From the UHGV virus genome UHGV-0076293: 64,000 bases of DNA. One strand, written 5' to 3'. Position 1 is the stretch's first letter; each line of letters begins with the position of its first letter. The notes beneath the pieces are model-generated. The model worked only from the letters and a program-made list of their open reading frames with translations. It was not told the origin of the DNA and ran no database searches. This document shows, piece by piece, positions 8,011-62,694 of this stretch. The DNA is from a virus. The position numbers and the translations under genes are program-made.

Positions 8011-8065
8011 TATTTTCAGATATATATTACTTAGGTGAGAGAATTACGTAATACTCATTTATCGA
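8011..8065 (+). promoter_or_regulatory. phage promoter-like element with downstream 5'-UTR hairpin (copy 1)
   Basis: TTTTCAGATATATATTACTTAGGTGAGAG followed by an imperfect palindrome; about 25 nt upstream of an AGGAG RBS; one of five near-identical copies. Confidence 0.6.
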
Positions 8066-14504: not shown

Positions 14505-14568
14505 TTTCTATTATTTTTTGGATAGATATTATCAAAGGGAGACTGTCAGTTGGTTTAAAGGAGACTTT

Positions 14569-19412: not shown

Positions 19413-19458
19413 TTCCCCAATTTATTATAGCTGCCCACTATAGTGAGGGAATGAGGAA

Positions 19459-27420: not shown

Positions 27421-27467
27421 TTTACAATTTTTGATCATACTGTGAGACTTCTAGCGAGGAGATTTAG

Positions 27468-34812: not shown

Positions 34813-34848
34813 CCCCCTACCTTCGGGTAGGGGTTATTTAATTTTTTC
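34813..34848 (+). terminator. intrinsic terminator (repeat-family hairpin)
   Basis: CCCTTACCCCCTACC-TTCG-GGTAGGGG followed by a T-rich stretch. Confidence 0.75.
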
Positions 34849-34890
34849 TCAGATATATATTACCTTAGTGAGATTACACAGTAATCACTT
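34843..34890 (+). promoter_or_regulatory. phage promoter-like element with downstream 5'-UTR hairpin (copy 2)
   Basis: TTTTTTCTCAGATATATATTACCTTAGTGAGA followed by an inverted repeat (TTAC...GTAATCAC). Confidence 0.6.
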
Positions 34891-36028: not shown

Positions 36029-36074
36029 ACAACTTTTTCTTTTGTTGTGAGGAAAGCCGATAAGGAGTATTAAA

Positions 36075-39838: not shown

Positions 39839-39879
39839 TTTCGATATAACTTCAGCATTGTGTTGTTAACGGTCTAAAA

Positions 39880-39920
39880 AATTTAAGATATATTTCATCT
39901 ATGTGAGAATTCTCACTTAA
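39880..39920 (+). promoter_or_regulatory. phage promoter-like element with downstream 5'-UTR hairpin (copy 3, variant)
   Basis: AAGATATATTTCATCTATGTGAGAATTCTCAC; perfect GTGAGAA/TTCTCAC palindrome. Confidence 0.5.
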
Positions 39921-39939
39921 CTAAATGGAGTAATCTAAA

Positions 39940-40209
39940 ATGGCTAAGATTTACATTGTTGAAAAACGTTCAGGTAATGTTCTTTCTTATCACGAAGAAG
40001 GCAAACCCGAAAGAGTTAAAACGCTCAAGCTTGAAGGTTTTGATGTGAAAAGCCTGCGTAAAGGCGTGAAGATTACTTTCAAAGGTTTGATTCGTGCAAG
40101 TAACTTACACATCATTAAAACGGACGGAACGATGGTTGCATTAGCACCGGCTACCGCTGCGAAAACGACAGCCGGTCGGGGTTGCTACGGCAGCAGTCGT
40201 AAGATTTAA
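39940..40209 (+). CDS. hypothetical small protein (89 aa)
   Basis: GGAG RBS, downstream of promoter motif copy 3. Confidence 0.6.
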   Translation: MAKIYIVEKRSGNVLSYHEEGKPERVKTLKLEGFDVKSLRKGVKITFKGLIRASNLHIIKTDGTMVALAPATAAKTTAGRGCYGSSRKI

Positions 40210-45940: not shown

Positions 45941-48900
45941 ATGGCTAAAGCGGTAAAGAAAATTCGTTTACACGATTTACGTCCATACACCGGTGATATC
46001 GGTGAAGGCGTTTTACTTTTCTCCAAGGATGAGAAAGATTATAAGTTACCAGTCCGTGAGGTTATTGCAGATATTGACACCGTACGTAATGCGGTGGCTG
46101 ATGCACAAACAGCAGCAGCACAATCACAAGAAGCTGCAACTCAGGCTACGCAAGCAAAAGTTTTAGCAGAAGCAGCAAAACAACAAACTGACACAGTTGC
46201 GGCAACGGTTGCACAACAAGCGCAAACCGTAACCGAAAAAGCAACAGAAGTCAGTACAAAACACACCGAAGTGTTAGCCGCGAAAACGGCGGTAGACGCT
46301 CAGGCTGTGTCCATTAATGAGAAAGCACAAGCGGTAGCGACAAGTGAGGCAAACGTCACACAAGCAGAAACTACCGTTACGAAGAAAGCAGAAACTGTTG
46401 CCACACAAGCCGGGCGGGTCGAACAGTCACTTACGGCAGTTAACGAAGCTGTTGCGTCGGTAGAGTCGTCGAAAGCTGCCGTAGAAGCTAAAGCAACACA
46501 AGTTACTTCAGACAAAGAAACCGCAGAGAATGCGGCAACTCGTTCTGAGGCAGCCGCTAAGCGTGCGGAAGAAATCGTTGCTCAAGGTACTGTTGATGCA
46601 ACAACGACCAGTAAAGGTGTCGTTAAACTTAATAATACCTTAACCAGTGACTCTGTTACTGAAGCGGCTACACCGTCAACGGTTAAGCAGTTAAATGATG
46701 AATTGCAGTTAAAAGCAAACCGTCACAACCCAACTTTTACCGGTGTGGTAAAAGCACCGACTCCTGCTTCGGATTCTAACGACACGAGCGTCTCAACGAC
46801 TGCATGGGTACGGCAAGCGATTGCTGAATTAGTGGACTCTTCACCCGAGACGTTAGATACGTTATCAGAAATTGCAGCCGCGTTAGGAAACGATCCTAAC
46901 TTTGCGACAACGATAACGAACCAACTAGCGGGTAAACAGCCGTTAAGTCCGTTACTGACAGCGATTGCCGCAGTCACCACCGCTGCAAACAAACTCCCTT
47001 ACTTTACCGGTAGTAATCAGGTAGGGTTAGCGGATTTCACCTCGACTGCTCGCGAATTATTAGCGAAAGGGTCGACGGCCGATATCATCAGCTTCCTGGG
47101 GTTGAAAACCACCGTTGATAAAGCTGCGGGCGCTATGCAACGTAGTTCTAACGGTGCCGATATTCCCGATAAAGCCACCTTCGCGAAGAACATCGGGTTG
47201 TCAGCAGAGACGTACCTGAAGTTTAATGGGGAGATGCCAGTAGATGCAGACATCAACACCTTCGGCCCGGTTGAAGCGTTTATGGGCGTTTGGTCTAAAG
47301 CCACGTCTACGAACGCAACAGTTGCAAAGAATTTTCCAGAAGAAAACGCAGTTGGTTGTTTAGAAGTTTTCAAAGCGGGTAACTACAGCGGAAGTCAACG
47401 TTTTACTGTACGTAACGGTAACATCTATACACGTCATCTTACTGCTGCATGGAATGGGACAAACGGTCCTTGGTCAGAATGGCGTAATGTTGCTGGTTCC
47501 GCCAGAACGTTGAACGAACAAAATAATCTGAATGACTTGGGTGGTGAGGCCGCACTAGGTGTTTGGAGAAACAGTTCGAGTACATTAGCAACAACCGCGC
47601 TGAATTATCCTGAAGAAGGCTCTTTTGCCCAGGGCGTATTAGAAGTTCTCAAAGGTGGCAACTATAGTTACACACAACGCTACACTACCCGCAGAGGCAA
47701 TGTATACGTTCGTTGTCTACAAGCCACGTGGGACGCTTCAAACCCGCAATGGGAAGAATGGCGCTGTGTTGGTCATCAATCTGTCAGCACATATTTCGAA
47801 GGCGATCTCGACACGTTAACTTCGCCTAACCGTTATAGCATTACTGATAAAGCGACAAACGTTCCTTTAATCGACGGTACTAAAATTATCGGTATCTTGG
47901 ACGTCAGTCGTCGTTTTGATAACATTAGTGTCGAACAAAAATTCACCTCGTTTGGTTCTGGGAGCAAAACTACAGGGCGTATTTTCACACGTGTATTCTC
48001 CGGTCAATCAAACGGTAAATGGAGTGAGTGGCGAGAGGTTTTCACCTCGTATTCACTTCCGTTAGTTTTAGGTATCGGTGGGGTTGCAGCTAAGGTTGAC
48101 CCGTTAGACTGGCAAACCTACGACTTCGTTCCTGGACAGATGTTAACGACGCCGTTGAACACCATGAAAAACATTCCTGCAGGAATGGATTGGGGTACTA
48201 TTGACGGTAACTTAGTTAACATCCTTGTAGGGCCGTCTGACGACACCGGTACTGGTCGGAGTATGCTGGTTTGGCGTAGCACAGTGTCTGTTGCTAACTA
48301 TCGCTTCTTTGCGGTACGTATCGCTGGTGAGAAGGGTAGTCGTACGATTACGCCGCGTCAGATGCCTGTGTTGAACGCAGCGCACACCTGGGCAGAGAAA
48401 CAAACGTTCTCTAAAGGTTTAGCGGGTGAATTAACCGGTAATGCTTCTTCAGCAACGAAACTTCAAACAGCCCGTTTAATCGGCGGCGTAAGTTTCGACG
48501 GCACCAAGGACATTGCACTCCCTGGCGTTAACGCACAAGGTACGCAGAACACCACTGGGAATGCGGCTACCGCAACCAAATTACAAACGGCTAGAAATAT
48601 CAACGGTGTGAAATTCGATGGCTCTGGAGACATCAATATCAACACCTTAGTAGGTCGTGGACGTGTCACTGCTCTGGCTGGATCAAACAAAGGTACACCT
48701 GGTATCCAGATGTACGAGGTTTACAATAACGGTTATCCGACCGCGTATGGTAATTTACTGCATTTAGGTGGTGCTACTGCCGTAGGTGAAGGTGAACTAC
48801 TGATCGGTTGGTCTGGTACCAGTGGCGCACACGCACCTGTTTATATCCGTAGTCGTCGAGACACTACAGATGCGCCGTGGTCAGAATGGGCGCAAGTTTA

Positions 48901-50257
48901 TACTGCACGAGACAGCATTCCGGGTGTCAACACCACAGGTAATCAGGATACGACCGGAAACGCAGCTACCGCTACAAAACTTAAAACCACACGTAAAATA
49001 GGCGGGGTTAATTTTGACGGAACGGGTGATATTAACCTACCAGGTGTAAACCAGCAGGGCAACCAGAACACAACAGGTAACGCTGCGACAGCGACTAAAC
49101 TCCAGACTGCCCGAAATATTGGTGGTGTGGCTTTCGATGGTACTAAAGACATCAGTTTACCTGGGGTAAACCAAACAGGGAATCAGTCAACTACGGGGAA
49201 CGCTGCTACTGCAACGAAGTTGCAGACAGCAAGAAGTATCAACAACGTACCATTCGATGGTTCGAAAGATATTACTCTAACGCCAAGTAATATCGGTGCG
49301 GCTGCCTCCTCAATGACTTGGTTAAATACCGGGGATAATGGTGCAGCGCTTAGTACAGATTCTTTTATTACTTTGTTGCAAAATAACGGGGCTTTTAATT
49401 CCAGAACTTGGATAGCCCGATGCTCTTGGGCGTATGCTCAAAATGGCGTGATTCCAGATAGTGAAACAAAGTGCGGTACTATTCCACTTGCAGGCTCAGT
49501 TATTGAAGTTGTAAGTTTTGGGATGACCAACTACACCATTCGTATCACAACCCCTACGACGACATCGGTTAGCGGAGCAAAAACCAACTCTGAGTTTATT
49601 TATTGCTATAATGGTAAAGATTATTCTCCAGGTTGGCGACGGCAGTATAACACTGTTAATAAACCGTCTGCTAGTGACGTTGGCGCTCTACCAACTGGTG
49701 GCGGTACTGTCAGTGGCGATTTGACGGTTAATGGTAAACTGGTTACGAAAAATGCCGATTTTCGAATTGCTTACGGTAGTTACGGTTTCATTTTACGTAA
49801 CGATGGCAATAGCACCTATTTCTTAGTAACAGCATCTGGTCAAGCTGCAACGGGTTCCTGGAACAACTTACGACCGATGTACTTTAGCAATTCTACCGGT
49901 CAAGTAACCTTCGGACACAACATTACCGGTAACGGCAACGGTTCGTTTAACGACGTACAGATTCGTTCTGACCGTCGTAACAAACGTAATCTGGTGAAAC
50001 TGGATAATGCATTAGACCGTTTAGAACTCCTTACCGGGTATCTGTACGAAGTTCAACATCCTGACGATGGATGGAATACTTCGGTAGGCTTAATTGCCCA
50101 GGATGCATTAGTTGCGTTACCTGAATTGGTTACTGAAGACGATGACGCTATTTCTGGTGAAAAACGTTTACGTTTGAACTATAATGGTGTTATTGCGTTG
50201 TTGGTAGAGGGTATTAAAGACCTTCGTCGTGAGCTTAAGGAACTCAAGGGGAAATAA
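45941..50257 (+). CDS. long tail fibre, T5 pb1-like (1438 aa)
   Basis: Ala/Gln/Thr-rich coiled-coil N-terminal region; five tandem GNAATATKLQTARNIGGVxFDGTKDI repeats (phage tail-fibre repeat class); C-terminal peptidase S74-type intramolecular chaperone with SDRRNK Ser-Lys motif. Confidence 0.85.
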   Translation: MAKAVKKIRLHDLRPYTGDIGEGVLLFSKDEKDYKLPVREVIADIDTVRNAVADAQTAAAQSQEAATQATQAKVLAEAAKQQTDTVAATVAQQAQTVTEKATEVSTKHTEVLAAKTAVDAQAVSINEKAQAVATSEANVTQAETTVTKKAETVATQAGRVEQSLTAVNEAVASVESSKAAVEAKATQVTSDKETAENAATRSEAAAKRAEEIVAQGTVDATTTSKGVVKLNNTLTSDSVTEAATPSTVKQLNDELQLKANRHNPTFTGVVKAPTPASDSNDTSVSTTAWVRQAIAELVDSSPETLDTLSEIAAALGNDPNFATTITNQLAGKQPLSPLLTAIAAVTTAANKLPYFTGSNQVGLADFTSTARELLAKGSTADIISFLGLKTTVDKAAGAMQRSSNGADIPDKATFAKNIGLSAETYLKFNGEMPVDADINTFGPVEAFMGVWSKATSTNATVAKNFPEENAVGCLEVFKAGNYSGSQRFTVRNGNIYTRHLTAAWNGTNGPWSEWRNVAGSARTLNEQNNLNDLGGEAALGVWRNSSSTLATTALNYPEEGSFAQGVLEVLKGGNYSYTQRYTTRRGNVYVRCLQATWDASNPQWEEWRCVGHQSVSTYFEGDLDTLTSPNRYSITDKATNVPLIDGTKIIGILDVSRRFDNISVEQKFTSFGSGSKTTGRIFTRVFSGQSNGKWSEWREVFTSYSLPLVLGIGGVAAKVDPLDWQTYDFVPGQMLTTPLNTMKNIPAGMDWGTIDGNLVNILVGPSDDTGTGRSMLVWRSTVSVANYRFFAVRIAGEKGSRTITPRQMPVLNAAHTWAEKQTFSKGLAGELTGNASSATKLQTARLIGGVSFDGTKDIALPGVNAQGTQNTTGNAATATKLQTARNINGVKFDGSGDININTLVGRGRVTALAGSNKGTPGIQMYEVYNNGYPTAYGNLLHLGGATAVGEGELLIGWSGTSGAHAPVYIRSRRDTTDAPWSEWAQVYTARDSIPGVNTTGNQDTTGNAATATKLKTTRKIGGVNFDGTGDINLPGVNQQGNQNTTGNAATATKLQTARNIGGVAFDGTKDISLPGVNQTGNQSTTGNAATATKLQTARSINNVPFDGSKDITLTPSNIGAAASSMTWLNTGDNGAALSTDSFITLLQNNGAFNSRTWIARCSWAYAQNGVIPDSETKCGTIPLAGSVIEVVSFGMTNYTIRITTPTTTSVSGAKTNSEFIYCYNGKDYSPGWRRQYNTVNKPSASDVGALPTGGGTVSGDLTVNGKLVTKNADFRIAYGSYGFILRNDGNSTYFLVTASGQAATGSWNNLRPMYFSNSTGQVTFGHNITGNGNGSFNDVQIRSDRRNKRNLVKLDNALDRLELLTGYLYEVQHPDDGWNTSVGLIAQDALVALPELVTEDDDAISGEKRLRLNYNGVIALLVEGIKDLRRELKELKGK
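48425..49295 (+). repeat. five tandem ~37-aa tail-fibre repeats inside the fibre gene
   Basis: repeated TGNAATATKLQTAR-x-IGGV-x-FDG-x-DI-x-LPGVNQ-x-GNQ units, recoded with synonymous codons between copies. Confidence 0.8.
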
Positions 50258-50803: not shown

Positions 50804-50815
50804 AAGAGTAGCGTA

Positions 50816-50825
50816 GGGGGGGGGG
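50816..50825. repeat. poly-G tract (G10) inside a GC hairpin
   Basis: homopolymer GGGGGGGGGG pairing with a downstream C6 run. Confidence 0.9.
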
Positions 50826-50853
50826 AGGTCACCCCCCTACGCGAATCTTAACA

Positions 50854-50862
50854 GGGGGGGGG
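50854..50862. repeat. poly-G tract (G9) forming the ribosome-binding region of the gene at 50865
   Basis: GGGGGGGGG ends 2 nt before the ATG. Confidence 0.9.
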
Positions 50863-51405: not shown

Positions 51406-51415
51406 GGGGGGGGGG
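51406..51415. repeat. poly-G tract (G10)
   Basis: homopolymer about 55 nt upstream of the gene at 51471. Confidence 0.9.
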
Positions 51416-51470
51416 TGAAGTGTTTTTAGCCAACATTTTATGTCTCCCCAACCGTAGGAGGTAAATATAC

Positions 51471-51986: not shown

Positions 51987-54119
51987 ATGAGTCAGCCAAT
52001 TGGAAAGAAGCGTATTCATGAGCTGGAAACATTTGAAGGTGAATTAGCAGGAGTCGTTCTGCTGATGTCCAAAGACGACAAAGAATATAAACTTGACGCA
52101 TCTCGTTTACAAAACGATAAGCTGTATCTAGCTTGCGGTACACCTTTTCCTAAACTAGTATTCCAAAACGATAAAACACATTACAATATTAATCCGTACA
52201 GTGACTACGACACTTATGAAGTTTCTGCAAATAAAGGTCGGGTATCTAAAGTTACTCGTGCCACATTTAGCGTGATGGCTGGGTCTTTATCGGTTGGCGA
52301 GAAAATACAACTTACAGTTACGCGCAATGGCGTACCATTTCAATTTGAAGTTACCGTATCGGGACCGCGTATCACTACTCCCACTTGGACACTTCCAGTT
52401 AATGGCGGTAAATTGAGCGTAACGCCAACCTTTGAAGTAACTGACTATCAAGCCTATCCATATACCAACACCGGTAATCAACAGACCGCTGCCAGTTGGG
52501 AAATTTCCACTAGTGAAGATTTCTCAACTACAGTTTTCCAATCACTGAACGACACCGTCAACAAAACAACCATCAGTATCCCAGAAGGTAAGTTAGAACC
52601 AGGTCAAACTTACTACGCACGTGTTCGCTTCCATAACGCAGTAACCGAAAGTGATTGGTCCGTTGTTCAATTCTCAGTCGGCGAAGCATTTATTCAGCGT
52701 CCTGCACTGATCGAACCCACCGTAGACATGGTGTTAAGCGCATCGAATATTACACTTAAAACTGATGTTTTTAAATGGGTCGGTGACGAACCTGCGGAGA
52801 CCCACGTATCGACTGACTGGCAGGTTACTTACGGTAGCAACGATTTTGACGAAATGAATAATCTCGTTAACCAATTAGAAGATGCGATTAACCTGACGTC
52901 GCTTAAATTACCGTCTGATCGGGTTTACGTTAATAACAGTTATCGTGCACGCGTGCGTTTTCGTGGTGAGAGAAGCGTCAGTGATTGGTCTGAACCTTTA
53001 ACGTTCCGTGTAAGTCGCGGGAACGTACCAACAAGTGAATTCCAGTCAATTTCTGCTTCTGGATTTACAGGTAATTCAATCGGTGCTGAGTTGGCATGTA
53101 CTGACGACGGTTTGCTGTTTGCTGCTACTGGCGTTGCACAGAAAGCGAAATTCTTACATATCTTTAAGAAAGACTTCCCGTCTTACAACAAAGTTGCCTC
53201 TTTAACAGCTGCTACTGAGGTTGACGCAGACAGAGATGGTCGCTGTCCGGTCAGTATGTCAGCCGACGGTAAGATTATTGTTGTCGGTGTTAGCGCATCT
53301 AAAGCTAACGAAGACCACGGCGAAGTTATCGTTTACCGTAACCCAGATAACGCTGAGTGGAGTACAATCAACGGAATAACTTTAGCGGGATTACCCACAG
53401 AAGGGTTCCATGGCCTTGCAGTAAAACTGTCAAAAGACGGCAATCGTTTGATTGTGGGTAACGGTACGAAAGTGCTGTCTATGTATTCCAATACCGATCA
53501 ATTTGCTACACGTACGGCTGTGTCGCCGACACTAAGTGCCGAAGACGCCACTTGTGGTGGTATTGGTAGCATTGCAATGTCTGAAGACGGTAACGGTTTA
53601 GTGCTTGGCGAAACTAACGGAACGAAATTCCACGTACTGGCTTGGGAATCGGATAGTTGGGTGTCTAAGGCATCTATTACACCAAAAGACTTGACTGAGA
53701 AAGCAACGATTAAAGTCGCTGCTTCTTCTGACTTGTCTACGATTCTTGTTTCTGTAGTTGAGACACACAAATACTACGTTTACAAGAAAACCGGTGATAG
53801 TTGGTCTCTGTTCCAAACCTTGGATTATACCGAACTGGATTACTCCATTACTTCTACCCGTTACCCGACGGGAGACATTAATGTTGCGCCTTCCGGAAGC
53901 TGGTTAATTTTCGGTATGGTGGGTTCGTTGGGTTCTATTTTCGAATTTCGTAATAGTACCTACCAACGACAAAATAGCATTTACGGCAGTAGTCTTAGCG
54001 ATCCTGAGAATTACCACTTCTATACGTCACAAGCCATCAGTGCACAAAACGATTTGTTCGTCGGTGCTGATGTTAAAGAAAGTGCTTCGTACTTCCCACA
54101 AATCAAAGTTTACATGTAA
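51987..54119 (+). CDS. second tail fibre / receptor-binding protein (710 aa)
   Basis: N-terminus KKRIHELETFEGELAGVVLLMSKDDKEYKL is homologous to the N-terminus of the 1438-aa fibre; two FN3-like units (YYARVRF...SDWS, YRARVRF...SDWS); C-terminal repeated S-x-DG-x-x-(I/L)-(V/I)-x-G beta-propeller-like blades. Confidence 0.7.
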   Translation: MSQPIGKKRIHELETFEGELAGVVLLMSKDDKEYKLDASRLQNDKLYLACGTPFPKLVFQNDKTHYNINPYSDYDTYEVSANKGRVSKVTRATFSVMAGSLSVGEKIQLTVTRNGVPFQFEVTVSGPRITTPTWTLPVNGGKLSVTPTFEVTDYQAYPYTNTGNQQTAASWEISTSEDFSTTVFQSLNDTVNKTTISIPEGKLEPGQTYYARVRFHNAVTESDWSVVQFSVGEAFIQRPALIEPTVDMVLSASNITLKTDVFKWVGDEPAETHVSTDWQVTYGSNDFDEMNNLVNQLEDAINLTSLKLPSDRVYVNNSYRARVRFRGERSVSDWSEPLTFRVSRGNVPTSEFQSISASGFTGNSIGAELACTDDGLLFAATGVAQKAKFLHIFKKDFPSYNKVASLTAATEVDADRDGRCPVSMSADGKIIVVGVSASKANEDHGEVIVYRNPDNAEWSTINGITLAGLPTEGFHGLAVKLSKDGNRLIVGNGTKVLSMYSNTDQFATRTAVSPTLSAEDATCGGIGSIAMSEDGNGLVLGETNGTKFHVLAWESDSWVSKASITPKDLTEKATIKVAASSDLSTILVSVVETHKYYVYKKTGDSWSLFQTLDYTELDYSITSTRYPTGDINVAPSGSWLIFGMVGSLGSIFEFRNSTYQRQNSIYGSSLSDPENYHFYTSQAISAQNDLFVGADVKESASYFPQIKVYM

Positions 54120-54128
54120 GGAAACGCG

Positions 54129-54689
54129 ATGAAATATGCTTATTTAAAAGACGGTAATGTGATCGACTGGAATGTTACCGAAGACATGATTGCTTTGCGT
54201 GGCCACACTGTAGATATTTATACGCCTGTAGTAGAATCTGCTAAACCGGTTGTTAACCCTGATTGTTATATCGTGTTCGAAACAACACCAAAACTGGTAA
54301 AAGGCAAGCTGGTTCAACAGTGGGTGACTGAAGCGCTGCCTAAAGAAACGGTAGTACGTAACCAGAAGGCACGTTTAGCGGAAATTCGTTATGCGAAAGA
54401 AACTGCCGGGATTACGTTTAAAGACCAAACTATTCCTACGACACGTGATGTACGTTATCAGTTAATTCAGTCTAAACACGTTGATTCTACGCAACCTATT
54501 AACTGGAAGCTAGGCGATACGTGGCTAAGTCTTACTCAGGAAGACATTGATGCGCTGCTGGTTGCAATCGCAACTTATGTTGAGAAATGCTACGCGGCAG
54601 AACGCACAGTCTCCGAGAAAATCACTAAGGTGAAAGCACCTGAAAAACTGGATGTAGAAACCTTATTTAACGACGCTTTCGCAGCGTAA
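54129..54689 (+). CDS. possible tail-fibre assembly/chaperone-like protein
   Basis: position immediately after a fibre gene; ARLAEIRYAKETAGITFKD...WKLGDTWLSLTQEDIDALL resembles tail-fibre assembly proteins; weak. Confidence 0.4.
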   Translation: MKYAYLKDGNVIDWNVTEDMIALRGHTVDIYTPVVESAKPVVNPDCYIVFETTPKLVKGKLVQQWVTEALPKETVVRNQKARLAEIRYAKETAGITFKDQTIPTTRDVRYQLIQSKHVDSTQPINWKLGDTWLSLTQEDIDALLVAIATYVEKCYAAERTVSEKITKVKAPEKLDVETLFNDAFAA

Positions 54690-54692
54690 CAC

Positions 54693-54736
54693 GGTAGCAG
54701 GGGCTTAGCCCCTGCTACCTTTTTCTTTATTTTTTC
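54693..54736 (+). terminator. intrinsic terminator
   Basis: GGTAGCAGGGGC-TTA-GCCCCTGCTACC followed by a T-rich stretch. Confidence 0.85.
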
Positions 54737-54782
54737 TCAGATATATATTACCTAGAGGAGAGTGAAATTTACATTCACTCCA
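54731..54782 (+). promoter_or_regulatory. phage promoter-like element with downstream 5'-UTR hairpin (copy 4)
   Basis: TTTTTTCTCAGATATATATTACCTAGAGGAGAGTGAA followed by an inverted repeat ending TTCACTCC. Confidence 0.6.
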
Positions 54783-54809
54783 TTAGTTATAGCCGAAAAG
54801 GAGGATTAG

Positions 54810-55661
54810 ATGTATCACCCGTATTATCTCCCGCACATTCTAGCAAATAGAGACCCTGGTTATTACTACGAACAAACAAAAGGATCTTTTAATCGGCTCT
54901 ACATTCGCGAATTTAATACTGATGAAATGACCGATGACCAGTATCTGGAGTATCTAAAAGACCTCTACGGTTTTTCAAAATCGAATAAAGGTGGCTTTGG
55001 ACGTTCCGCAGTTATTAGAGTTGGTGAATATCGTCATTTGGCTAAGCCCGTTACGTATCCTATTGTTACACGCGCTTATACATCGGATAGGCAATATATT
55101 GCTGAACTAAAATTTCCTTTACGGATAGACGGGCCACAAATTAGCGCTATAGAAGTAGAAATTCAACCAATTGCTGAAGACTATATTGAAGTCTACTTCA
55201 AGAAAGCTAAAGAGGTACTCGAGGAGGGTTTAAGCTACTATGAAGAAGGAACGATTTGTCTTCTTTCGTTACTCACGAAGGCTTATGTCACAGCAAATTT
55301 CCGTATCTCCGACTCCAGTGACTATAACACATTTACCCCCTCTAAGGCAAAACCTGTTTATTGGGACGATCAGTTAGTCGACAGACAACGCTGGCTTACT
55401 ATCTTAGATAAAGTAAAATTCGAACCCCCTAAACACACTGAAGACAACTTTATTCTATTCCACAACTTCGAACCGATCTATATTCCGACGCATTTTGAGC
55501 AAGCCTTACGTCATCGATTGAAGTATGTGTTGGAATTACGGTACGGGAAGATAAATGGGCTAACTTGTTCTGGTGAATTGAGTGAAGAAGAACGCGAGAA
55601 GATAAAAATCGTGTTTGATAAGTTGGTTGAAGATTACATTAAGAAGGAAGGACAGTTATGA
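54810..55661 (+). CDS. hypothetical protein (283 aa)
   Basis: AAGGAGGA RBS; first gene after the promoter motif. Confidence 0.7.
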   Translation: MYHPYYLPHILANRDPGYYYEQTKGSFNRLYIREFNTDEMTDDQYLEYLKDLYGFSKSNKGGFGRSAVIRVGEYRHLAKPVTYPIVTRAYTSDRQYIAELKFPLRIDGPQISAIEVEIQPIAEDYIEVYFKKAKEVLEEGLSYYEEGTICLLSLLTKAYVTANFRISDSSDYNTFTPSKAKPVYWDDQLVDRQRWLTILDKVKFEPPKHTEDNFILFHNFEPIYIPTHFEQALRHRLKYVLELRYGKINGLTCSGELSEEEREKIKIVFDKLVEDYIKKEGQL

Positions 55662-56101
55662 AACCAAATACTACTAACGGCATTATGTTACTTTGTGATT
55701 CTGAAACGTTAGCAAACCGTATTCGTGGTTTGATGCAAGTACGTTGGCAGCAAAAGGTTCGCGTGGATTATGCTGCTCCGTTTGTTCACGTTAGTTGGTT
55801 GCCAGAAGCTAACGATTTCAAAGAAAATATCACCACGAAAAGAATTAAAAATTGGTTAATGGCAATCATTAACAAACAGATTACCGTTATCAATTTCCAG
55901 TTGTTCGGTAGTAAAGAGGAACATGATACCTTAAAACGCTGTTTAAGGGGATTGGATCTTGCCTTTTCTGTTCGTGGAAATTGTTACACAGCGTTCTTCA
56001 TCGGTTCTCTCGAGTTATTTCAGGGAACATTAAACATTCAACTAAAAGAAGATTACGGGATTGTAAATAAGATTGATTTCGAATTCCCAGCAATGATTTA
56101 A
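55658..56101 (+). CDS. hypothetical protein (147 aa)
   Basis: ATGA overlap. Confidence 0.65.
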   Translation: MKPNTTNGIMLLCDSETLANRIRGLMQVRWQQKVRVDYAAPFVHVSWLPEANDFKENITTKRIKNWLMAIINKQITVINFQLFGSKEEHDTLKRCLRGLDLAFSVRGNCYTAFFIGSLELFQGTLNIQLKEDYGIVNKIDFEFPAMI

Positions 56102-56112
56102 GGAGTAGTAGC

Positions 56113-56940
56113 ATGTTACAGTTCGAACTCACCGAAGAAAGAAAAGTCGTTAACGAGTTTAAAATTTCCCCTATCCCTACCGAAAAACAAATTAAAGAAA
56201 TCGCTGAGTTACAAAATAAGTACAGCTTTTACTATAAAGTTAAATCGGAAACATTTAATATTTTCTGGACCGAAGACGAGGTCAATTTCCCTAACAAACT
56301 CATTAATGCGGCTCTAGATATTTTAGTACGGCCTGTTGAGACGTCTAAAGATCCAGAACAAACCACTTGTAGGTTGAAAGTCGAGCGCCCAGCGAAGGAT
56401 GTTGCTTACTTCACAGACGAGATTCTACTTACCTCCAAACAGGCAGGTAAAATTGGATCAATATTATACCTTTTTTACAGCGACAAATTCACTTATCTGG
56501 TTGAAAACAGCGTACTTAAAGTGAACTATGAATATGCTAGTTATCGTGTTCTTTTAAATCAACTATTGGAAGACATAGAGGGAGAAAATGTTCTGGTATT
56601 TACAGTTGAATATATTAGCAAAGCCGATGCTGTCGAGTTTATCCGCCGCGTGAAAGATGAACTCGAAGACCGTGAATTTATGATTTATCAAAGCAAATAT
56701 CTTGAAGGTAACTTGAATCTCTTGATCAGAAACGAATCATGGATTCTTAAAGTTTTGGAATCCCATGCGCAGAAAATTAAGAGAGGCAGTGATTGTTTTA
56801 AACAAATTTTCGAGAAATACGAAACGGAAATTAGACAACGGCTTGCATCCCACTGGGCCGTAGATCAGGATGTGGAATACGCCCAGCTATTTGATAAGTT
56901 TTATAACGAGATGAGGAGGGTTTGGGATCTTAAACAATAG
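56113..56940 (+). CDS. hypothetical protein (275 aa)
   Basis: AGGAG RBS. Confidence 0.7.
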   Translation: MLQFELTEERKVVNEFKISPIPTEKQIKEIAELQNKYSFYYKVKSETFNIFWTEDEVNFPNKLINAALDILVRPVETSKDPEQTTCRLKVERPAKDVAYFTDEILLTSKQAGKIGSILYLFYSDKFTYLVENSVLKVNYEYASYRVLLNQLLEDIEGENVLVFTVEYISKADAVEFIRRVKDELEDREFMIYQSKYLEGNLNLLIRNESWILKVLESHAQKIKRGSDCFKQIFEKYETEIRQRLASHWAVDQDVEYAQLFDKFYNEMRRVWDLKQ

Positions 56941-57020
56941 GCCGAAGATCATTTCCGTAAGTATTAAACAGGGGGATTTACGTCCCCTCAACACAGAGCA
57001 AACCCCTAAAGGAGCATTAA

Positions 57021-57536
57021 ATGTCAGTAAATATTAACATGAATCTTTATACTAAACGTGAACGTCAGATTCTGGCGAATCAACCCGGTGTTACGACTAT
57101 TGACGGTAAACCCATTGACCGTTTAAAAGTTATCGTTGCGCGAAATTGCCATGAACGCGATTGGGACATTACCTACTTCCGTTGTTGTTCGGTCGCAAAC
57201 GCGCTTACCCAACTCTCCAACTACCACCCAGGGCCGTTATTAAAAGACTGGGTTTGGTTAGTACCCAAAACACCTTCGGCGATTGAATACCCCTCAGGGT
57301 TAGTCTATATTCGCCCTGTTGCTTATCCAGAGCGTCTGAAAGAGTATCTTGAAGTTATCTGGAACCGTCCTCGTAAAGAGCTGCTGACGATTATTAATTT
57401 ACTGCAACAGATCGATATCCCCGGTGTTTCGAATTTGAAACTCACGTCTCGCGATATTAACCAGGCTTACTGGGAACTAGAGTGGACAGAACCGAAATTC
57501 GAAAACACTAACCGTATTTTCTTGCACCGGGGGTAA
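57021..57536 (+). CDS. hypothetical protein (171 aa)
   Basis: AAGGAG RBS. Confidence 0.65.
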   Translation: MSVNINMNLYTKRERQILANQPGVTTIDGKPIDRLKVIVARNCHERDWDITYFRCCSVANALTQLSNYHPGPLLKDWVWLVPKTPSAIEYPSGLVYIRPVAYPERLKEYLEVIWNRPRKELLTIINLLQQIDIPGVSNLKLTSRDINQAYWELEWTEPKFENTNRIFLHRG

Positions 57537-57538
57537 AA

Positions 57539-57820
57539 ATGTTAAATTGGTTGTTGGGTTTAATTAACTCACGTCAACAGGAGCTTTATAAAGAAAACAC
57601 ACGATTACGGCAGGAACTTAATAACAATCGTCAGACCAAACGACAATTAATTCGGATGGTAAAACAACAGGCGCGTTGTATACGGGATATCGATTATCAG
57701 TATCACCGTCTGAATACCTTAGACCCAACAACAAAAGCTTTAGGTAGTACGATTGGACACGCACGTAAAGTCAGTCACGATGCGTTAGTTCGAATCGATA
57801 CAATAGAAGAGAAACTGTGA
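57539..57820 (+). CDS. hypothetical coiled-coil protein (93 aa)
   Basis: start 2 nt after upstream stop. Confidence 0.6.
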   Translation: MLNWLLGLINSRQQELYKENTRLRQELNNNRQTKRQLIRMVKQQARCIRDIDYQYHRLNTLDPTTKALGSTIGHARKVSHDALVRIDTIEEKL

Positions 57821-57863
57821 TTAGCACTCCCTCGGTTTTCCCGAGGGAGATAAGGTGTTTTGC

Positions 57864-58253
57864 ATGAAGCGTTTATCTTACTTAAAAAGACGTTTGTTAC
57901 TAAAGGTCCAATTATTCATCAATGGGAAAGTTAAAAACTGGCTATGTGGTGAAAGGGTACAACGTATCGTCAGTGAGGGCGACTGGTATACGGAAATCGT
58001 GGTTTCCCCAAATGGCGAGCTTATAAACGTTACCATTCGTGACGTTTTGGTTAAGATTGGCAGGGAAGGTGGTTTGCTGTTTGAATCGGAAACTACAAAA
58101 GTCGTTGCTAAACAATTGAAAGAAGGTCGGATTATATTCAACGTTGCTGCCCAAAAATACTACGACAATTTATTCGAATGTCAACGAGCAATAGGCAGAA
58201 TGACTCGTGAGATGCGAAGAATGCACATCACGGAGATCACTATAGGAGTTTAA
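57864..58253 (+). CDS. hypothetical protein
   Basis: first ATG (track begins at a GTG at 57855); preceded by a GAGGGAG-containing hairpin. Confidence 0.6.
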   Translation: MKRLSYLKRRLLLKVQLFINGKVKNWLCGERVQRIVSEGDWYTEIVVSPNGELINVTIRDVLVKIGREGGLLFESETTKVVAKQLKEGRIIFNVAAQKYYDNLFECQRAIGRMTREMRRMHITEITIGV

Positions 58254-58255
58254 CG

Positions 58256-58564
58256 ATGGAAAATAAAATCGCAAACACAACGGCACCTGAGAACATCGTC
58301 AACTATATTCTCAGTGGCGGGTTATTAGAAGACAACAAAGAAACGTGCGATAAACTCGTTTCACAACTACTGCCTATTCGTTCAGAATACTGCGAAATCG
58401 TTATCTTAGGTTCTGAGTATTGCGTACGTTCTTACTGTCGTCGTTTCGAAGCCTTACGCGTTCCACGTACGTTAGGTGGCGTGATACTCTTAGTCTCTAA
58501 CTTTCACAGTGCACACGTTCGTGTTGCAACCTGGATTGCAAACGGTGGCGATAATGGTTTTTAA
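58256..58564 (+). CDS. hypothetical protein (102 aa)
   Basis: tight coupling to neighbours. Confidence 0.6.
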   Translation: MENKIANTTAPENIVNYILSGGLLEDNKETCDKLVSQLLPIRSEYCEIVILGSEYCVRSYCRRFEALRVPRTLGGVILLVSNFHSAHVRVATWIANGGDNGF

Positions 58565-58841
58565 TTTATTTAAACGTAAGGAATGTCTTGTCTGCGAAAC
58601 CTGCGAAAAAATTATCTCTACGCAAGATGAGCTAATCAAACAGCAAGATAAGTTGCTCACTGAAATGGGCGAACTCTATTTTAAACTTTGTGCTATTACC
58701 GAACTGGTTAGTGAAGGTGTGTTAACGAAAGACGGTGGATTAGAGTTGGTCAAGAAGGCAACGATTCACTGTCGTCCTGAAGTAGAAAAATATAAACTTG
58801 AAGTGAAACGTGAAATGTGGGAGATTATTAATGAAGCGTGA
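58554..58841 (+). CDS. hypothetical protein (about 95 aa) with CxxC motif
   Basis: internal ATG of the track ORF 58509-58841; 11-nt overlap with upstream gene; CLVCETC motif. Confidence 0.5.
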   Translation: MVFNLFKRKECLVCETCEKIISTQDELIKQQDKLLTEMGELYFKLCAITELVSEGVLTKDGGLELVKKATIHCRPEVEKYKLEVKREMWEIINEA

Positions 58842-59112
58842 AACAGTTGTATTTCGTAGTAATGGTGATGTGGTTTTGTATCGTGGTAAGAAACGTATTC
58901 GTACGTTAGAATACCGTGAAGCAAAACGTTTTGTTGAAGAGTGTGCATGGTTAATGCATTACGAAGGGAACTATCGTGCTATCTTAGAAGCTCCGCGTTT
59001 AGAACGTGCGGTTGCACAGATGGCAATAGGTAATCCTAAGAACTGTTACCTGGCCCGTAAGCCAAAATACTTACAGCGTCTTTCGTTAGGCAGCTTTATT
59101 GCTGGATTTTAA
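58831..59112 (+). CDS. hypothetical protein (about 93 aa)
   Basis: internal ATG of the track ORF 58810-59112 with GGAG RBS. Confidence 0.5.
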   Translation: MKRETVVFRSNGDVVLYRGKKRIRTLEYREAKRFVEECAWLMHYEGNYRAILEAPRLERAVAQMAIGNPKNCYLARKPKYLQRLSLGSFIAGF

Positions 59113-59118
59113 TAAAAA

Positions 59119-59170
59119 TAATTTCAGATATATATTACCTAGGTGAGAGTTCAGTTACTCTCACTTAACC
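59119..59170 (+). promoter_or_regulatory. phage promoter-like element with downstream 5'-UTR hairpin (copy 5)
   Basis: ATTTCAGATATATATTACCTAGGTGAGAGT-TCAGT-TACTCTCAC; clean 8-bp stem. Confidence 0.65.
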
Positions 59171-59194
59171 AAAACCATTTTAGGAGCATATACC

Positions 59195-59689
59195 ATGAAC
59201 TTCACTAGACTTGACTACACTAACGAATTAGTCGACAAAGAAAAATACAAATTCACCGTTGACTTGGGTTACGGATTACTGGACGTAGAAAAAGACGTCC
59301 TGCACAAAGAATTCCGTGAACAGTTCGGTGCTCTGTTCTGCGCAGGTTTCCGCAGAAACACTATCGATATCGGTTATAGCGCAACAGCGTATACCGACGA
59401 AGAAATGTTTAAGCTGGTAACACAGATTATCGGTACGCGTGGAGCCAAACGACTCAACTATTCCAACGAACTTGTTTCGAAAGAACATTACAAGTTCACC
59501 GTTAGACTACCTGTTCCCCTCACAGAAGAGGATAAGAACATCCTCTATAAAGCCCTTCAAACCGAATTCGGTAAAACGCTCAAAGTAGGGTTCCGTAATC
59601 GTAGTATCGATATCGGAATTAGTGTGGACGTGTGTAGTGACGACGACCTTTACGAATTAGTTTCGGAAGTTATCGAAAAACATCTCTAA
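59195..59689 (+). CDS. hypothetical protein with internal tandem duplication
   Basis: two ~80-aa halves: RLDYTNELVDKEKYKFTVDL...GFRRNTIDIGYS versus RLNYSNELVSKEHYKFTVRL...GFRNRSIDIGIS. Confidence 0.7.
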   Translation: MNFTRLDYTNELVDKEKYKFTVDLGYGLLDVEKDVLHKEFREQFGALFCAGFRRNTIDIGYSATAYTDEEMFKLVTQIIGTRGAKRLNYSNELVSKEHYKFTVRLPVPLTEEDKNILYKALQTEFGKTLKVGFRNRSIDIGISVDVCSDDDLYELVSEVIEKHL

Positions 59690-59735
59690 ACCTAAATTAA
59701 CACTTCGACTTGTAAATCTAAAAGGAAAAATAAAA

Positions 59736-60500
59736 ATGAAAACTATCGAATTCAAAAACAGCAACGTACGCGAGCAAGGACACATTATCACGAGCTTCCT
59801 GAAAAATTCTACACCGCATTTAGCTTATCAATTCTACGGGAACGAACTTAAGATTGCCGGTTTTGATGAAGTTGAATTAAATAAGGCAAACGAATTCATT
59901 ACCGACGTTATTGCCGACGAAGCTACCTGTTTAGTTCTGAACTTCGTTAAACCTGGAGAAGACATAAAGTCTGCCGAGAAGTTATTTATGGCAGTTTCTG
60001 AGAAACTATACGGTATCGTTGAGGTTGATAGCAATAACTATATTGTTTATTTTAAGCATTCTCCAAAGAAAAACCTCGCTAAAATCAGAGAGTTTTTTGA
60101 ACACAACCCTTCATACTGCGTAGATCTTTACACCCTCGCCTACGACGGAAAAGCACATCCTAACAACCTTATTCGTTATGACCATATTCCGCATGTACCG
60201 GGAAGATTCGAGGCTACGGAATGGTTCTTATTACACAAAGATCGGATTGCTTATTACAATTACGAAGAGATCAAAGGGATTGTAGACAAAATCAATGATG
60301 ACTACTTACAAACTCGTGAAATGTTTTGCGTGACTGTAAGAGCTAATGGTTTAACTTCATTCACTTGTGACAACCGCGTCGGTCGTCGGGTCTACGATCT
60401 GTTAATAAAGGAACTTGACAAACTTACTCCGGTAAAAGTTGGTGTTAACTATTTAAATTGGATAAAGGCGGGTTTAATTGATGAAAACTCTAAATTCTGA
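59736..60500 (+). CDS. hypothetical protein (254 aa)
   Basis: AAGGAAAA RBS. Confidence 0.7.
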   Translation: MKTIEFKNSNVREQGHIITSFLKNSTPHLAYQFYGNELKIAGFDEVELNKANEFITDVIADEATCLVLNFVKPGEDIKSAEKLFMAVSEKLYGIVEVDSNNYIVYFKHSPKKNLAKIREFFEHNPSYCVDLYTLAYDGKAHPNNLIRYDHIPHVPGRFEATEWFLLHKDRIAYYNYEEIKGIVDKINDDYLQTREMFCVTVRANGLTSFTCDNRVGRRVYDLLIKELDKLTPVKVGVNYLNWIKAGLIDENSKF

Positions 60501-60909
60501 TTTGCGTGATTACATTCGTAAATACCCAGCCAGTATTCCGGTACTGGCTTCACTCTCTTTATCGGGTATGGACCTTAATACCTTAACGGTAGAAAAATTC
60601 CACGAAGTAGTAAAATCGTCGTATCAAATTGTTACCGATATGTCAGTGCGGAAACGTGCTGACTACCCAGACGGTGATTTCGGTACAGAGATGTTCACAG
60701 ACTACGCAGTTGCGTATCTGATGGGACGTCACTTTATCGATAAACTCAATACGGCTGTAGAAGGAGAAACAGTCACGGAAATTGTCAATGCTTGGCAGCA
60801 ACGTATTGTGAGTGACGCTTACTGTCGTCAAGCCTTAAAGAAAATGTCGGCGGTAGCATTAACCAATGACCAACGTGCTTTAGAGTTCCTTAAGCACAAT
60901 TACGAATAA
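60481..60909 (+). CDS. hypothetical protein, paralog of the gene at 62097
   Basis: ATG 3 nt after a TTG used by the track; shares DLRDYIRKYP...EYPxGDFG...VxEWxxRIxSD with the gene at 62097. Confidence 0.65.
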   Translation: MKTLNSDLRDYIRKYPASIPVLASLSLSGMDLNTLTVEKFHEVVKSSYQIVTDMSVRKRADYPDGDFGTEMFTDYAVAYLMGRHFIDKLNTAVEGETVTEIVNAWQQRIVSDAYCRQALKKMSAVALTNDQRALEFLKHNYE

Positions 60910-60930
60910 TTTACCAAAAGGAAAAGTACC

Positions 60931-62034
60931 ATGTTTAATATCGAGATTACACCGCTCGTTAAAACTGAAATCCGTCCGGTTCCTGAAGCACAGTTACTCG
61001 ATCAACTTTATCGTATATTCCTGGATAAAGGTGTACATTTCCGTGCAGAACAGGTCAACGATGAAAGCATCGTGTTCTACTGGACTCACTGCAACGATTA
61101 TCTTTGCGACACTATTGCGGTGGAAATCGGTGAGTTACTCAACCCGGTAGAAACGGCCGAGACTGAACAACCGAAAGTCGATGAACAGCAGAAAGACGAA
61201 CCGCTCGTCCTCTGGTACGAAGGCGAAAAGATTAAGGATATTAAAGAGGCGTTAGAGACCTTCTATCCCGGTGATTTAGGCATTTACTGGGATAACAGCA
61301 AGCTCGTCGTTCGATTGAAGAAAGACGATCGTAACCTCATGGAAGAAGTACGTTCTATCGCCGAACTGTTCGATAACGACGCAGTTCGTCTTATTTCGTT
61401 TCATGATATCGGAAAAGAAGACGCAGATGATATCATGCGTGGTGCTGTACACGAACACAAGGGGAAAATTCGCCAGTCTAATTATGTTGACAGCACTCTA
61501 ACTGTGCTTGTTGATAATGATCCTGACGTTATTAAATGGTTCGAAGAACCGTATTCCTTTACTTACACTGGCCCAGAGGCCGAAGCGATTAATGATACCT
61601 TGACAGCTTTCTATCCTACCAAAGTAGAGACTAAACTCGAAGGTGAAAAACTCACCATTAAATGGAAATGGTGGGACGCTGCTCTCGACGAAGAAATTCA
61701 TAGTCTCATTAAAGAGATTGTTGGCAATCGTCTACGTCTTCTAACAATCACTACTATTGGGAAAGAAGATGCCGACACGCTTATGCGTGGTATCACTCGT
61801 TGGTTTCCTGAGAAAGTCCGTCAGTGGACTTACACAAACGATACACTTACCATTCTACTCAACTATGAACCCGGTATTATTGGAAAGTTAAAAACTCATC
61901 TGCGTGACTTGTGGTCAGTTCGTTTTCTTAATAATAACGAGCACTTACTCGACACGTACTTTAGAGAAATATCTTCTGGCGTAGGTTGCAACTGCCCTAA
62001 CTGTCAAAAACGTCGTCAATTAACGACTTTCTAA
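60931..62034 (+). CDS. hypothetical protein with internal tandem duplication (367 aa)
   Basis: two ~115-aa repeats, each containing IGKEDAD(D/T)(I/L)MRG. Confidence 0.7.
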   Translation: MFNIEITPLVKTEIRPVPEAQLLDQLYRIFLDKGVHFRAEQVNDESIVFYWTHCNDYLCDTIAVEIGELLNPVETAETEQPKVDEQQKDEPLVLWYEGEKIKDIKEALETFYPGDLGIYWDNSKLVVRLKKDDRNLMEEVRSIAELFDNDAVRLISFHDIGKEDADDIMRGAVHEHKGKIRQSNYVDSTLTVLVDNDPDVIKWFEEPYSFTYTGPEAEAINDTLTAFYPTKVETKLEGEKLTIKWKWWDAALDEEIHSLIKEIVGNRLRLLTITTIGKEDADTLMRGITRWFPEKVRQWTYTNDTLTILLNYEPGIIGKLKTHLRDLWSVRFLNNNEHLLDTYFREISSGVGCNCPNCQKRRQLTTF

Positions 62035-62580: not shown

Positions 62581-62694
62581 TTCTTTTTTGTTATTTTGAC
62601 ACCACCTTACTTACACCCTACCCGACTATTCCTATGCTGGCTGAGGGATGTAAAACGACCTCTTAAACCTTTTTACTTACTGTGAGTTAACGCG

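Follow-up and report, generated by a model that had tools for sequence, protein, structure and literature searches.

A recurrent early-promoter-like element with a predicted 5' stem-loop in an uncultured jumbo phage of the SPN3US/phiEaH2 group

We analyzed a 64-kb stretch (64,000 nucleotides) of the virus genome UHGV-0076293, hereafter the window, with the + strand as presented, and found that five sites carry copies of one element, composed of a T-rich run, an AT-rich core (AGATATATATTAC) and a GTGAGA sequence that opens an inverted repeat. Comparison with published motifs suggests that this element is very probably an early promoter of the class read by virion RNA polymerases, and the analysis of related copies suggests that its hairpin probably acts at the RNA level, as a 5' element of early transcripts. 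The promoter itself is of a well-known kind, and its 5' stem-loop is a variant of the SPN3US/phiEaH2 branch that we did not find described.

Copies of the element and their promoter class

The copies are numbered 1-5 by position. The exact AGATATATATTAC sequence occurs four times in the window, at 8018, 34851, 54739 and 59126, and a fifth copy at 39886 aligns with the others without gaps, with four mismatches in the core (AGATATATTTCATCTATGTGAGA); all five are located on the + strand. They share one layout, in which a T-rich run ending in T(T/C)TC is followed by the core, four semi-conserved bases (YTAG) and GTGAGA, and then by the inverted repeat, about 25-35 more bases, a ribosome-binding site (RBS) and a start codon. 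The original prediction had described five near-identical intergenic copies just upstream of RBSs, each with GTGAGA. Our results agree with it on the copies, as four exact and one variant, and on their placement; GTGAGA was found in four of them, and copy 4 (core at 54739) has AGGAGA (54756) in its place.

We trained a position weight matrix on the five window copies and used 50 shuffled windows as the null. The results showed that the five copies scored 38.9-52.2, compared with a shuffled-window maximum of 13.3 (n=50). A covariance model trained solely on 14 copies from other phages was used to search both strands of the window, and recovered four of the copies with E values from 3.6e-9 to 1.7e-4 and nothing else convincing on either strand; the variant copy 3 (39885) obtained only E = 1.5. 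All copies lie within intergenic DNA, which makes up about 6.6% of the window. They are co-oriented with the genes (78 of the 81 rough gene calls in the window are on the + strand) and are located 35-54 nt 5' of a start codon. The motif scores, the covariance-model matches and this intergenic, co-oriented placement indicate that the element is real and far beyond chance. Weaker copies previously suggested near 19415, 27425 and 62665 were not recovered: they scored below the matrix null, have no core and no covariance-model match, and carry only a GTGAG-like element. The copies, their hairpins (lone-fold energies) and two adjacent terminators are listed below.

8011-8030, + strand: copy 1, T-rich run and core AGATATATATTAC (8018-8030); exact match, matrix score 50.7, covariance-model E = 3.4e-7
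8035-8058, + strand: copy 1, imperfect hairpin GTGAG...CTCAT; -1.8 kcal/mol, z +0.4; predicted start G 8037; ATG 8088 of a 47-aa open reading frame (ORF)
34814-34848, + strand: terminator-like GC hairpin CCCCTACC TTCG GGTAGGGG with a T-run, directly upstream of copy 2, found by sequence inspection
34843-34863, + strand: copy 2, T-rich run and core (34851-34863); exact match, matrix score 46.5, covariance-model E = 3.3e-8
34868-34888, + strand: copy 2, hairpin GTGAGATTAC-ACA-GTAATCAC; -5.0 to -6.1 kcal/mol, z -1.6 (lone fold -5.0); predicted start 34870; ATG 34924
39878-39898, + strand: copy 3, variant core AGATATATTTCAT (39886-39898); matrix score 38.9, covariance-model E = 1.5
39903-39916, + strand: copy 3, palindromic hairpin GTGAGAATTCTCAC; -5.9 kcal/mol, z -1.6; predicted start 39905; ATG 39940
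54693-54728, + strand: intrinsic-terminator-like hairpin (12 pairs, 9 GC) with a T-run, directly upstream of copy 4, found by terminator scan
54731-54751, + strand: copy 4, T-rich run and core (54739-54751); exact match, matrix score 47.3, covariance-model E = 1.7e-4
54760-54780, + strand: copy 4, hairpin GAGTGAA-ATTTACA-TTCACTC after AGGAGA; -7.4 kcal/mol, z -2.5; predicted start 54758; ATG 54810
59119-59138, + strand: copy 5, T-rich run and core (59126-59138); exact match, matrix score 52.2, covariance-model E = 3.6e-9
59143-59164, + strand: copy 5, hairpin GTGAGAGT-TCAGTT-ACTCTCAC; -12.2 kcal/mol, z -3.8; predicted start 59145; ATG 59195

The early promoters predicted in related phages (PMC7058600, Table 2) read TATATTAC in phiKZ and TTTRARR_BTATATTACDWHDGTG in 201phi2-1, the latter including the downstream GTG; the 201phi2-1 core is TATATTACDWHDGTG, and the OBP and N1M2 early promoters read ...RRYAKATATTATYW(W)A(D/A)GTG (PMC7058600). 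In AR9, 41 start sites mapped by differential RNA sequencing gave the early consensus AAATATATATTAT-(6N)-G+1, and these starts are chloramphenicol-independent and need no new protein synthesis, which points to the virion polymerase; phiKZ and phiR1-37 likewise initiate 6 nt past the element (PMC5312081). In phiKZ, the early motif has been described as an extended -10 box accompanied by a T-rich motif upstream of -19 (PMC8244752), and a motif centered near -10 is detectable bioinformatically in every jumbo phage that encodes an RNA polymerase (RNAP) (PMC7598289). According to a review, the injected multisubunit virion polymerase transcribes immediately after infection (PMC13282480).

The window motif is identical to the AR9 13-mer at 11 of 13 positions and contains the phiKZ 8-mer TATATTAC exactly, in agreement with the statement, made in the original prediction, that the core is the virion-RNAP early-promoter consensus of phiKZ-like phages (PMC7058600, Table 2; PMC5312081). 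In the first 50 kb of phiKZ we found TTTAA(A/G)NNNTATATTAC-NNNN-(G/T/A)TG upstream of genes, that of the nuclear shell among them, with the same start-purine offset, seen as NTG. The other features of this promoter class are also present in the window. The AT-rich element of about 10-13 nt near -10 (TATATTAC or ATATATATTAT) is represented by the four exact copies of AGATATATATTAC and the one variant; in sequence, a G stands 6 nt downstream of the element in all five copies, as in 74 of 94 unselected relatives; and a T-rich element lies upstream of about -19 in every copy. The copies are intergenic, co-oriented with the genes and head mostly hypothetical ones, and none is immediately 5' of the major head, tail fiber or virion structural genes. 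In the literature on 201phi2-1, all early promoters precede hypothetical genes.

To identify the phage, protein families were searched in the window. By PHROG, the window encodes a major head protein of the phiKZ type, virion structural proteins, a helicase resembling DnaB and a large tail fiber protein, and the Pfam search detected a phiKZ_IP domain (internal head protein). Identity of the major head protein amounts to 79.6% with Erwinia phage phiEaH2, about 78% with SPN3US-like Salmonella phages and about 24% with phiKZ and 201phi2-1, and the gene order of the window is that of Salmonella phage SPLA1a, a Seoulvirus. Because of the head-protein identity, the phiKZ_IP domain and the Seoulvirus gene order, sequence comparison assigns the window to an uncultured enterobacterial-type, phiKZ-related jumbo phage of the SPN3US/phiEaH2 group. 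Its nucleotide identity to uncultured IMG/VR contigs of about 151-225 kb is 94-98%. A protein identical to one of the window is encoded in human-gut metagenome assemblies (e.g. ERZ918790) and on a 219,558-bp contig of GCA_039953535.2; this suggests that the phage is in circulation in the human gut and that it was assembled together with a bacterial isolate.

When positions 54000-62000 of the window were compared with 50,697 phage records by megablast, the sole match was a stretch of 40-62 nt at the motif, recorded for copy 5, found in 44 jumbo phage records (Salmonella, Erwinia, Escherichia and Proteus); a more sensitive search found the motif at 274 places in 76 records. In SPLA1a a canonical copy (L451 15310) occupies the syntenic place of window copy 1, upstream of the block of small genes before the helicase. 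For copy 3, the comparison of 39840-39945 with the related loci L452-L455 showed 100% identity among five phages over about 70 nt, which cover an A-run, the variant promoter, its hairpin and the RBS, while the upstream DNA and the downstream coding sequence have diverged (protein 85-97% identical). Because these 70 nt are invariant amid diverged flanks, copy 3 is better regarded as a conserved functional variant than as a decayed copy. The first genes downstream belong to 40 unrelated families among 76 copies and are mostly of no known function; the gene after copy 2 (ATG 34924) encodes a helix-turn-helix DNA-binding protein (PHROG 7126, E = 1.4e-32). Terminator-like hairpins close each gene block, and such a terminator stands directly before copy 2 and before copy 4. 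Upstream of copy 4, a mosaic replacement distinguishes the window from its relatives L177, L148 and L209: the segment 51911-54693, about 2.8 kb in the window and about 0.7 kb in the relatives, contains a 710-aa ORF (51987-54119, with a weak Ig_Rha78A_N match) and a second ORF (54129-54689). Homology to the three relatives resumes exactly at 54693, at the terminator-promoter of copy 4.

The stem-loop downstream of the core

We predicted the transcription start with the rule core-(6N)-G+1, taken from AR9 and reported also for phiKZ and phiR1-37 (PMC5312081). The resulting +1 positions of copies 1-5 are 8037, 34870, 39905, 54758 and 59145, which place TATATTAC at -14 to -7 and the T-rich element, TTT(T)C or TTCTC in all window copies, at about -24 to -21. 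Counted from these positions, the 5' untranslated regions (UTRs) are 51, 54, 35, 52 and 50 nt long, and their median over 76 copies is 51 nt. Under the spacing rule +1 is the second G of GTGAGA, and the hairpin would therefore be placed at the 5' end of the RNA, which fits the 5'-terminal stem-loop that had been proposed for each early transcript. The further claim that GTGAGA always forms the 5' arm of a hairpin stands as far as complementarity is concerned; it does not stand for stability, since the hairpin of copy 1 (8035) folds with only -1.8 kcal/mol (z +0.4). The strongest fold in the window is that of copy 5 (59143; -12.2 kcal/mol, z -3.8), followed by copy 4 (54760; -7.4, -2.5), copy 3 (39903; -5.9, -1.6) and copy 2 (34868; -5.0, -1.6). 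Within the imperfect hairpin of copy 1 lies a perfect 10-nt palindrome, ATTACGTAAT (8044-8053), which cannot fold as an RNA hairpin because no loop is left, and which might be a dimeric protein-binding site or a decayed stem.

Relatives were collected from IMG/VR with the 17-mer T(C/T)TCAGATATATATTAC, which is blind to the downstream sequence; it was used in place of a 14-mer, whose scan of viral contigs was swamped by chance AT-rich matches. We obtained 94 distinct instances, mostly several per contig, on contigs of 205-246 kb, and in 74 of them [GA][TG]GA stands exactly 4 bases past the core. The 36 nt from GTGAGA in the 74 related copies folded with a mean of -6.6 kcal/mol, compared with -2.9 in shuffles and about -2 in flanking segments of the same loci, and -4 kcal/mol or lower was reached by 81% of the copies versus 26% of the shuffles. 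Of 73 folded copies, 59 have their first paired base at offset 0-2, counted from the G of GTGAGA, the 5' end itself being a predicted one, and the hairpin usually ends at offset 20-24. Its total length is nearly constant (18-21 nt) and its distance from the core is fixed. The loops (about 3-11 nt) and the distal stem are free in sequence, and nothing is conserved downstream of the hairpin; the GAGA of the 5' arm (positions 1-4) and the TCT on the 3' side show conservation of both sequence and pairing.

The related copies contain 37 distinct 8-nt 5' arms. Chimeras whose 5' and 3' halves came from different copies were found to lose the fold (-5.60 kcal/mol for the native copies vs -2.77, z = -15.7). 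This energy-based test was preferred to an earlier arm-swap test by longest ungapped stem (6.81 vs 5.73 bp), which discriminates poorly because the conserved GAGA/TCTC and the AT-richness pair promiscuously. Covariation was analyzed in an alignment of 83 model matches (77 distinct sequences), with column shuffles as the control. The results showed that 93.9% of the stem cells are paired, compared with 76.4% in the shuffles, a percentage inflated by the fitting of this alignment to the structure, from which the chimera test is independent; 67 cells carry two-sided changes versus 18.9 in shuffles, and the covariation score was 0.248 versus 0.099, with 0 of 500 shuffles higher and slid registers at 0.04 or below. 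A compensatory change is seen at orthologous sites, where window copy 4 has GAGTGAA...TTCACTC and its counterpart L173 has GAGCGAA...TTCGCTC. With the closing pair excluded, 9 G.U pairs stand against 4 A.C mismatches (the closing pair is G.U in 53 of 75 sequences), which mildly favors a sense-strand RNA structure over a double-stranded DNA cruciform.

The same excess of folding was absent from 22 early promoters of the phiKZ/201phi2-1 type, drawn from phiKZ (first 50 kb) and IMG/VR contigs >200 kb (-2.31 kcal/mol vs -2.46 in shuffles). No curated Rfam model matched anywhere in the window at the gathering score, and the literature that we searched contains no mention of a hairpin on jumbo-phage early transcripts. 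The new part is a promoter-linked, covarying 5' stem-loop on what would be many early transcripts of the enterobacterial branch, missing from the Pseudomonas branch, which we have not found described.

Proposed function and alternative explanations

We propose that each copy would be read right after infection by a multisubunit RNA polymerase packaged in the virion and injected with the DNA, and that transcription would start at the conserved G's of GTGAGA downstream of each CAGATATATATTAC, 6 nt (+/- about 2 nt) past the core. The first 20 nt or so of the early transcript would form a short, AU-rich stem-loop beginning at the 5' end or a few nt from it, which would hide the triphosphate end from host 5'-end-dependent decay (RppH, RNase E), and the outcome would be longer-lived early mRNAs for small, mostly uncharacterized takeover proteins. 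Stem-loops at the 5' terminus, such as that of the ompA mRNA, shield the 5' end from sensing by RppH and RNase E, and end protection is the simplest function here because the stem begins at or within about 2 nt of the predicted 5' end. By this analogy the stem-loop may serve as an mRNA stabilizer, a role that we put forward tentatively; the explanation as a whole, a virion-polymerase early promoter with a 5'-terminal stem-loop stabilizing early mRNAs, seems to us reasonably likely.

Several observations weigh against this explanation. The start site in the SPN3US-like clade is extrapolated from AR9, phiKZ and phiR1-37, and a +1 at the second G of GTG leaves copies 1 and 3 with terminal stems of 3 bp only. 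The true start may be 2 nt upstream of that G, because the 3' arm in this lineage often runs on as ...CAC, complementary to the GT of GTG. Some of the related copies, among them L178, L201 and L158, have a stem that begins 4-6 nt inside the RNA, and their ends would be less well protected. Besides the inflated pairing percentage given above, covariation alone does not separate an RNA hairpin from a single-stranded DNA hairpin. About 20 large ORFs of the window were scanned with Pfam and PHROG, and none was recognized as an RNA polymerase subunit gene; that the phage has a virion polymerase is suggested by the 78-80% capsid identity and the gene order common to SPN3US-like phages, and virion RNAP subunits of SPN3US are documented in the literature. 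Phages of the phiKZ type, finally, manage without the hairpin. The gene product gp37 of phiKZ, which we take to be the degradosome inhibitor Dip, has tblastn homologues only in 45 Pseudomonas phages; the idea that this inhibitor substitutes for the hairpin is weakly supported at best, because 201phi2-1-type phages appear to have neither Dip nor hairpin.

The hairpin could instead act in transcription, either as a nascent-RNA aid to promoter clearance for a sigma-less virion polymerase or by setting the dosage of early genes as a promoter-proximal pause or attenuator. Its fixed distance from the core and its length of 18-21 nt would suit such a role, the phiKZ 5' UTRs hold many terminators that give abundant short RNAs sharing a 5' end (PMC10914365), and a lenient scan flagged the hairpin of copy 4 as terminator-like. 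We regard this role as unlikely: the stems are AU-rich and of small length, the T's behind them belong largely to the 3' arm, a U-tract after the stem is lacking in four of the five window copies, canonical GC-rich terminators stand separately upstream of copies 2 and 4, and the phiKZ-type promoters, read by a homologous enzyme, have no hairpin. As an intrinsic terminator the hairpin was rejected, since only copy 4 passes the lenient scan and the other copies have 2-3 T's partly inside the stem. RNase III sites were rejected as well, the hairpin stems of 6-9 bp being too short for them. A recognition tag bound by a phage or host protein, for selective translation, release from early vesicles or protection from RNA-targeting defenses, is rather improbable. 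Such a tag would explain why GAGA and the 3' TCT are conserved beyond pairing and why the hairpin is confined to one promoter class (a second class with GATAGATATTATC, described below, has none), and a review counts the exit of mRNA from the vesicle of early infection among the unanswered questions (PMC13282480). The loops, however, vary freely, and a free distal stem is typical of a purely structural element; phages of the phiKZ/201phi2-1 type also use vesicles and have no hairpin, and no candidate binding protein was identified. In its clade-specific form, in which the hairpin marks virion-polymerase mRNAs for a phage or host factor, we consider this idea quite doubtful. If true, its possible uses would be early-vesicle release, preferential translation or shielding from RNA-targeting immunity, and the linkage to one of two promoter classes would mean a distinct post-transcriptional route for the earliest messages.

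That the cassettes of about 60 bp also serve as portable homology patches, through which recombination shuffles early modules between related jumbo phages in the manner of promoter-early stem-loop (PeSL) cassettes (PMC2839356, PMC4122927), appears distinctly improbable. The cassettes are indeed the only nucleotide similarity to distant relatives, unrelated gene families follow them, and homology to L148, L177 and L209 resumes at the terminator-promoter of copy 4; but the conservation of a functional promoter alone accounts for the common similarity, the comparison covered a single mosaic boundary, and the idea leaves the covariation of the arms unexplained. Two features of a PeSL were not found: a strong sigma70 -35/-10 pair is absent from the two copies scanned, and the stem-loop is AU-rich, fixed in position and without a U-tract in four of five copies. 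An ordinary host sigma70 promoter with TATATT as its -10 box, or a promoter with a DNA hairpin of the N4 type and a start downstream of it, is very improbable. TATATT shares five of six positions with TATAAT, and copy 5 has a 9/12 sigma70-like match; yet the matches near copies 4 and 5 are not clearly above shuffles (18 vs 10.7 +/- 3.8 expected) and copy 4 has none, so that in the two copies scanned (54739 and 59126) the likeness is at chance level, as the original prediction had held, and the conserved positions reach well past the -10 box and fit motifs mapped to host-independent early transcription. The N4 virion polymerase does use hairpin promoters, and these are DNA hairpins, GC-rich, centered at -11 and with a conserved 3-nt loop (PMC4496689); here the loops are variable in length (about 3-11 nt) and free in sequence, the stems are AU-rich, the hairpin lies 3' of the core and nothing is conserved 3' of it. 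Both the sigma70 and the N4-type reading were rejected.

Other elements, meaning and comparison with known systems

A second promoter-like class without hairpin was noticed, GATAGATATTATC-(3N)-(G/A/T)TG or GGG, which fits the OBP/N1M2-type consensus RRYAKATATTATY..GTG. The window has one copy, GATAGATATTATC at 14521-14533 on the + strand (matrix score 22.5), which the original prediction had missed; it follows the terminator of the major head gene, and syntenic copies stand after the major head gene in SPLA1a and phiEaH2. Further sites are located at L451 22381 and 23186, L060 12630 and 13582, and L140 12820 and 13623. This class comprises 16 distinct copies in the fetched loci, each with an apparent RBS and start codon about 20-70 nt downstream. 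A separate TGTGAG group is found at 19441-19447, 27439-27446, 36046-36052 and 62679-62686, with a layout of terminator, T-run, short spacer and (AC)TGTGAG or GTGAGG just upstream of the RBS; the weaker copies suggested in the original prediction belong to this group. These four window sites have neither the AT-rich core nor a hairpin, and may be middle or late promoters with a common GTGAG initiator-like element. The sequence ACTGTGAG occurs only twice on the + strand of the window, both times in intergenic DNA. Elsewhere in the window, a 685-aa ORF at 12334-14391 (- strand), antisense to the major head gene (12166-14451, + strand), is almost certainly spurious, a shadow ORF. Long G homopolymers (G8-G11) and a hairpin of G/C runs are located at 50815-50862 and 51410-51422, in intergenic DNA that separates small genes just downstream of the 1438-aa tail fiber gene (45941-50257), and could be slippage-prone tracts in a host-range region.

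With the promoter assignment, early transcription units can be annotated from sequence in this gut jumbo phage and in the whole SPN3US/phiEaH2 group, and a compact promoter, independent of the host, becomes available for the engineering of such phages. The hairpin would be a mutable handle on the survival and handling of early mRNA in nucleus-forming phages before the phage nucleus exists, and SPN3US, which is culturable and genetically tractable, carries the same element.

Among known systems, the closest are the early promoters of phiKZ-related phages (phiKZ, 201phi2-1, AR9, OBP and N1M2), which belong to one broad phage group with the window. The AT-rich core is identical to that of phiKZ and 201phi2-1 and matches AR9 AAATATATATTAT at 11 of 13 positions, the G 6 nt downstream and the upstream T-rich element are shared, and the promoters are intergenic and head operons of small hypothetical genes. 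The window clade differs in a longer core, (T/C)TCAGATATATATTAC(C/T), in the conserved covarying stem-loop added at or near the predicted +1, which the phiKZ/201phi2-1 type does not have, and in 5' UTRs of about 50 nt versus 31-40 nt in phiKZ. The PeSL cassettes of T4-like phages are also small, repeated combinations in which an early promoter is accompanied by a stem-loop, upstream of orphan genes, with flanking genes not conserved. Their promoters, however, are of the sigma70 type, which the element here does not resemble, and their stem-loops are GC-rich terminators of upstream transcription at variable positions relative to -35/-10, whereas the AU-rich stem-loop here is fixed at the predicted transcript start and has separate terminators upstream. 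N4 hairpin promoters resemble the element in being early promoters for a virion-delivered polymerase and in having an inverted repeat; the N4 polymerase is single-subunit, whereas a multisubunit enzyme is expected here, and the N4 hairpin is GC-rich and located at -11, unlike the AU-rich, free-looped hairpin downstream of a -10-like core. The 5'-terminal stabilizer stem-loops of the ompA type in E. coli mRNAs, reportedly described by Emory, Bouvet and Belasco in 1992, share with the present hairpin a short stem-loop at or near the mRNA 5' end, an enterobacterial host and an unstructured spacer before the RBS; the difference is that here the stem-loop is a repeated, promoter-linked module on many viral transcripts, at a predicted 5' end.

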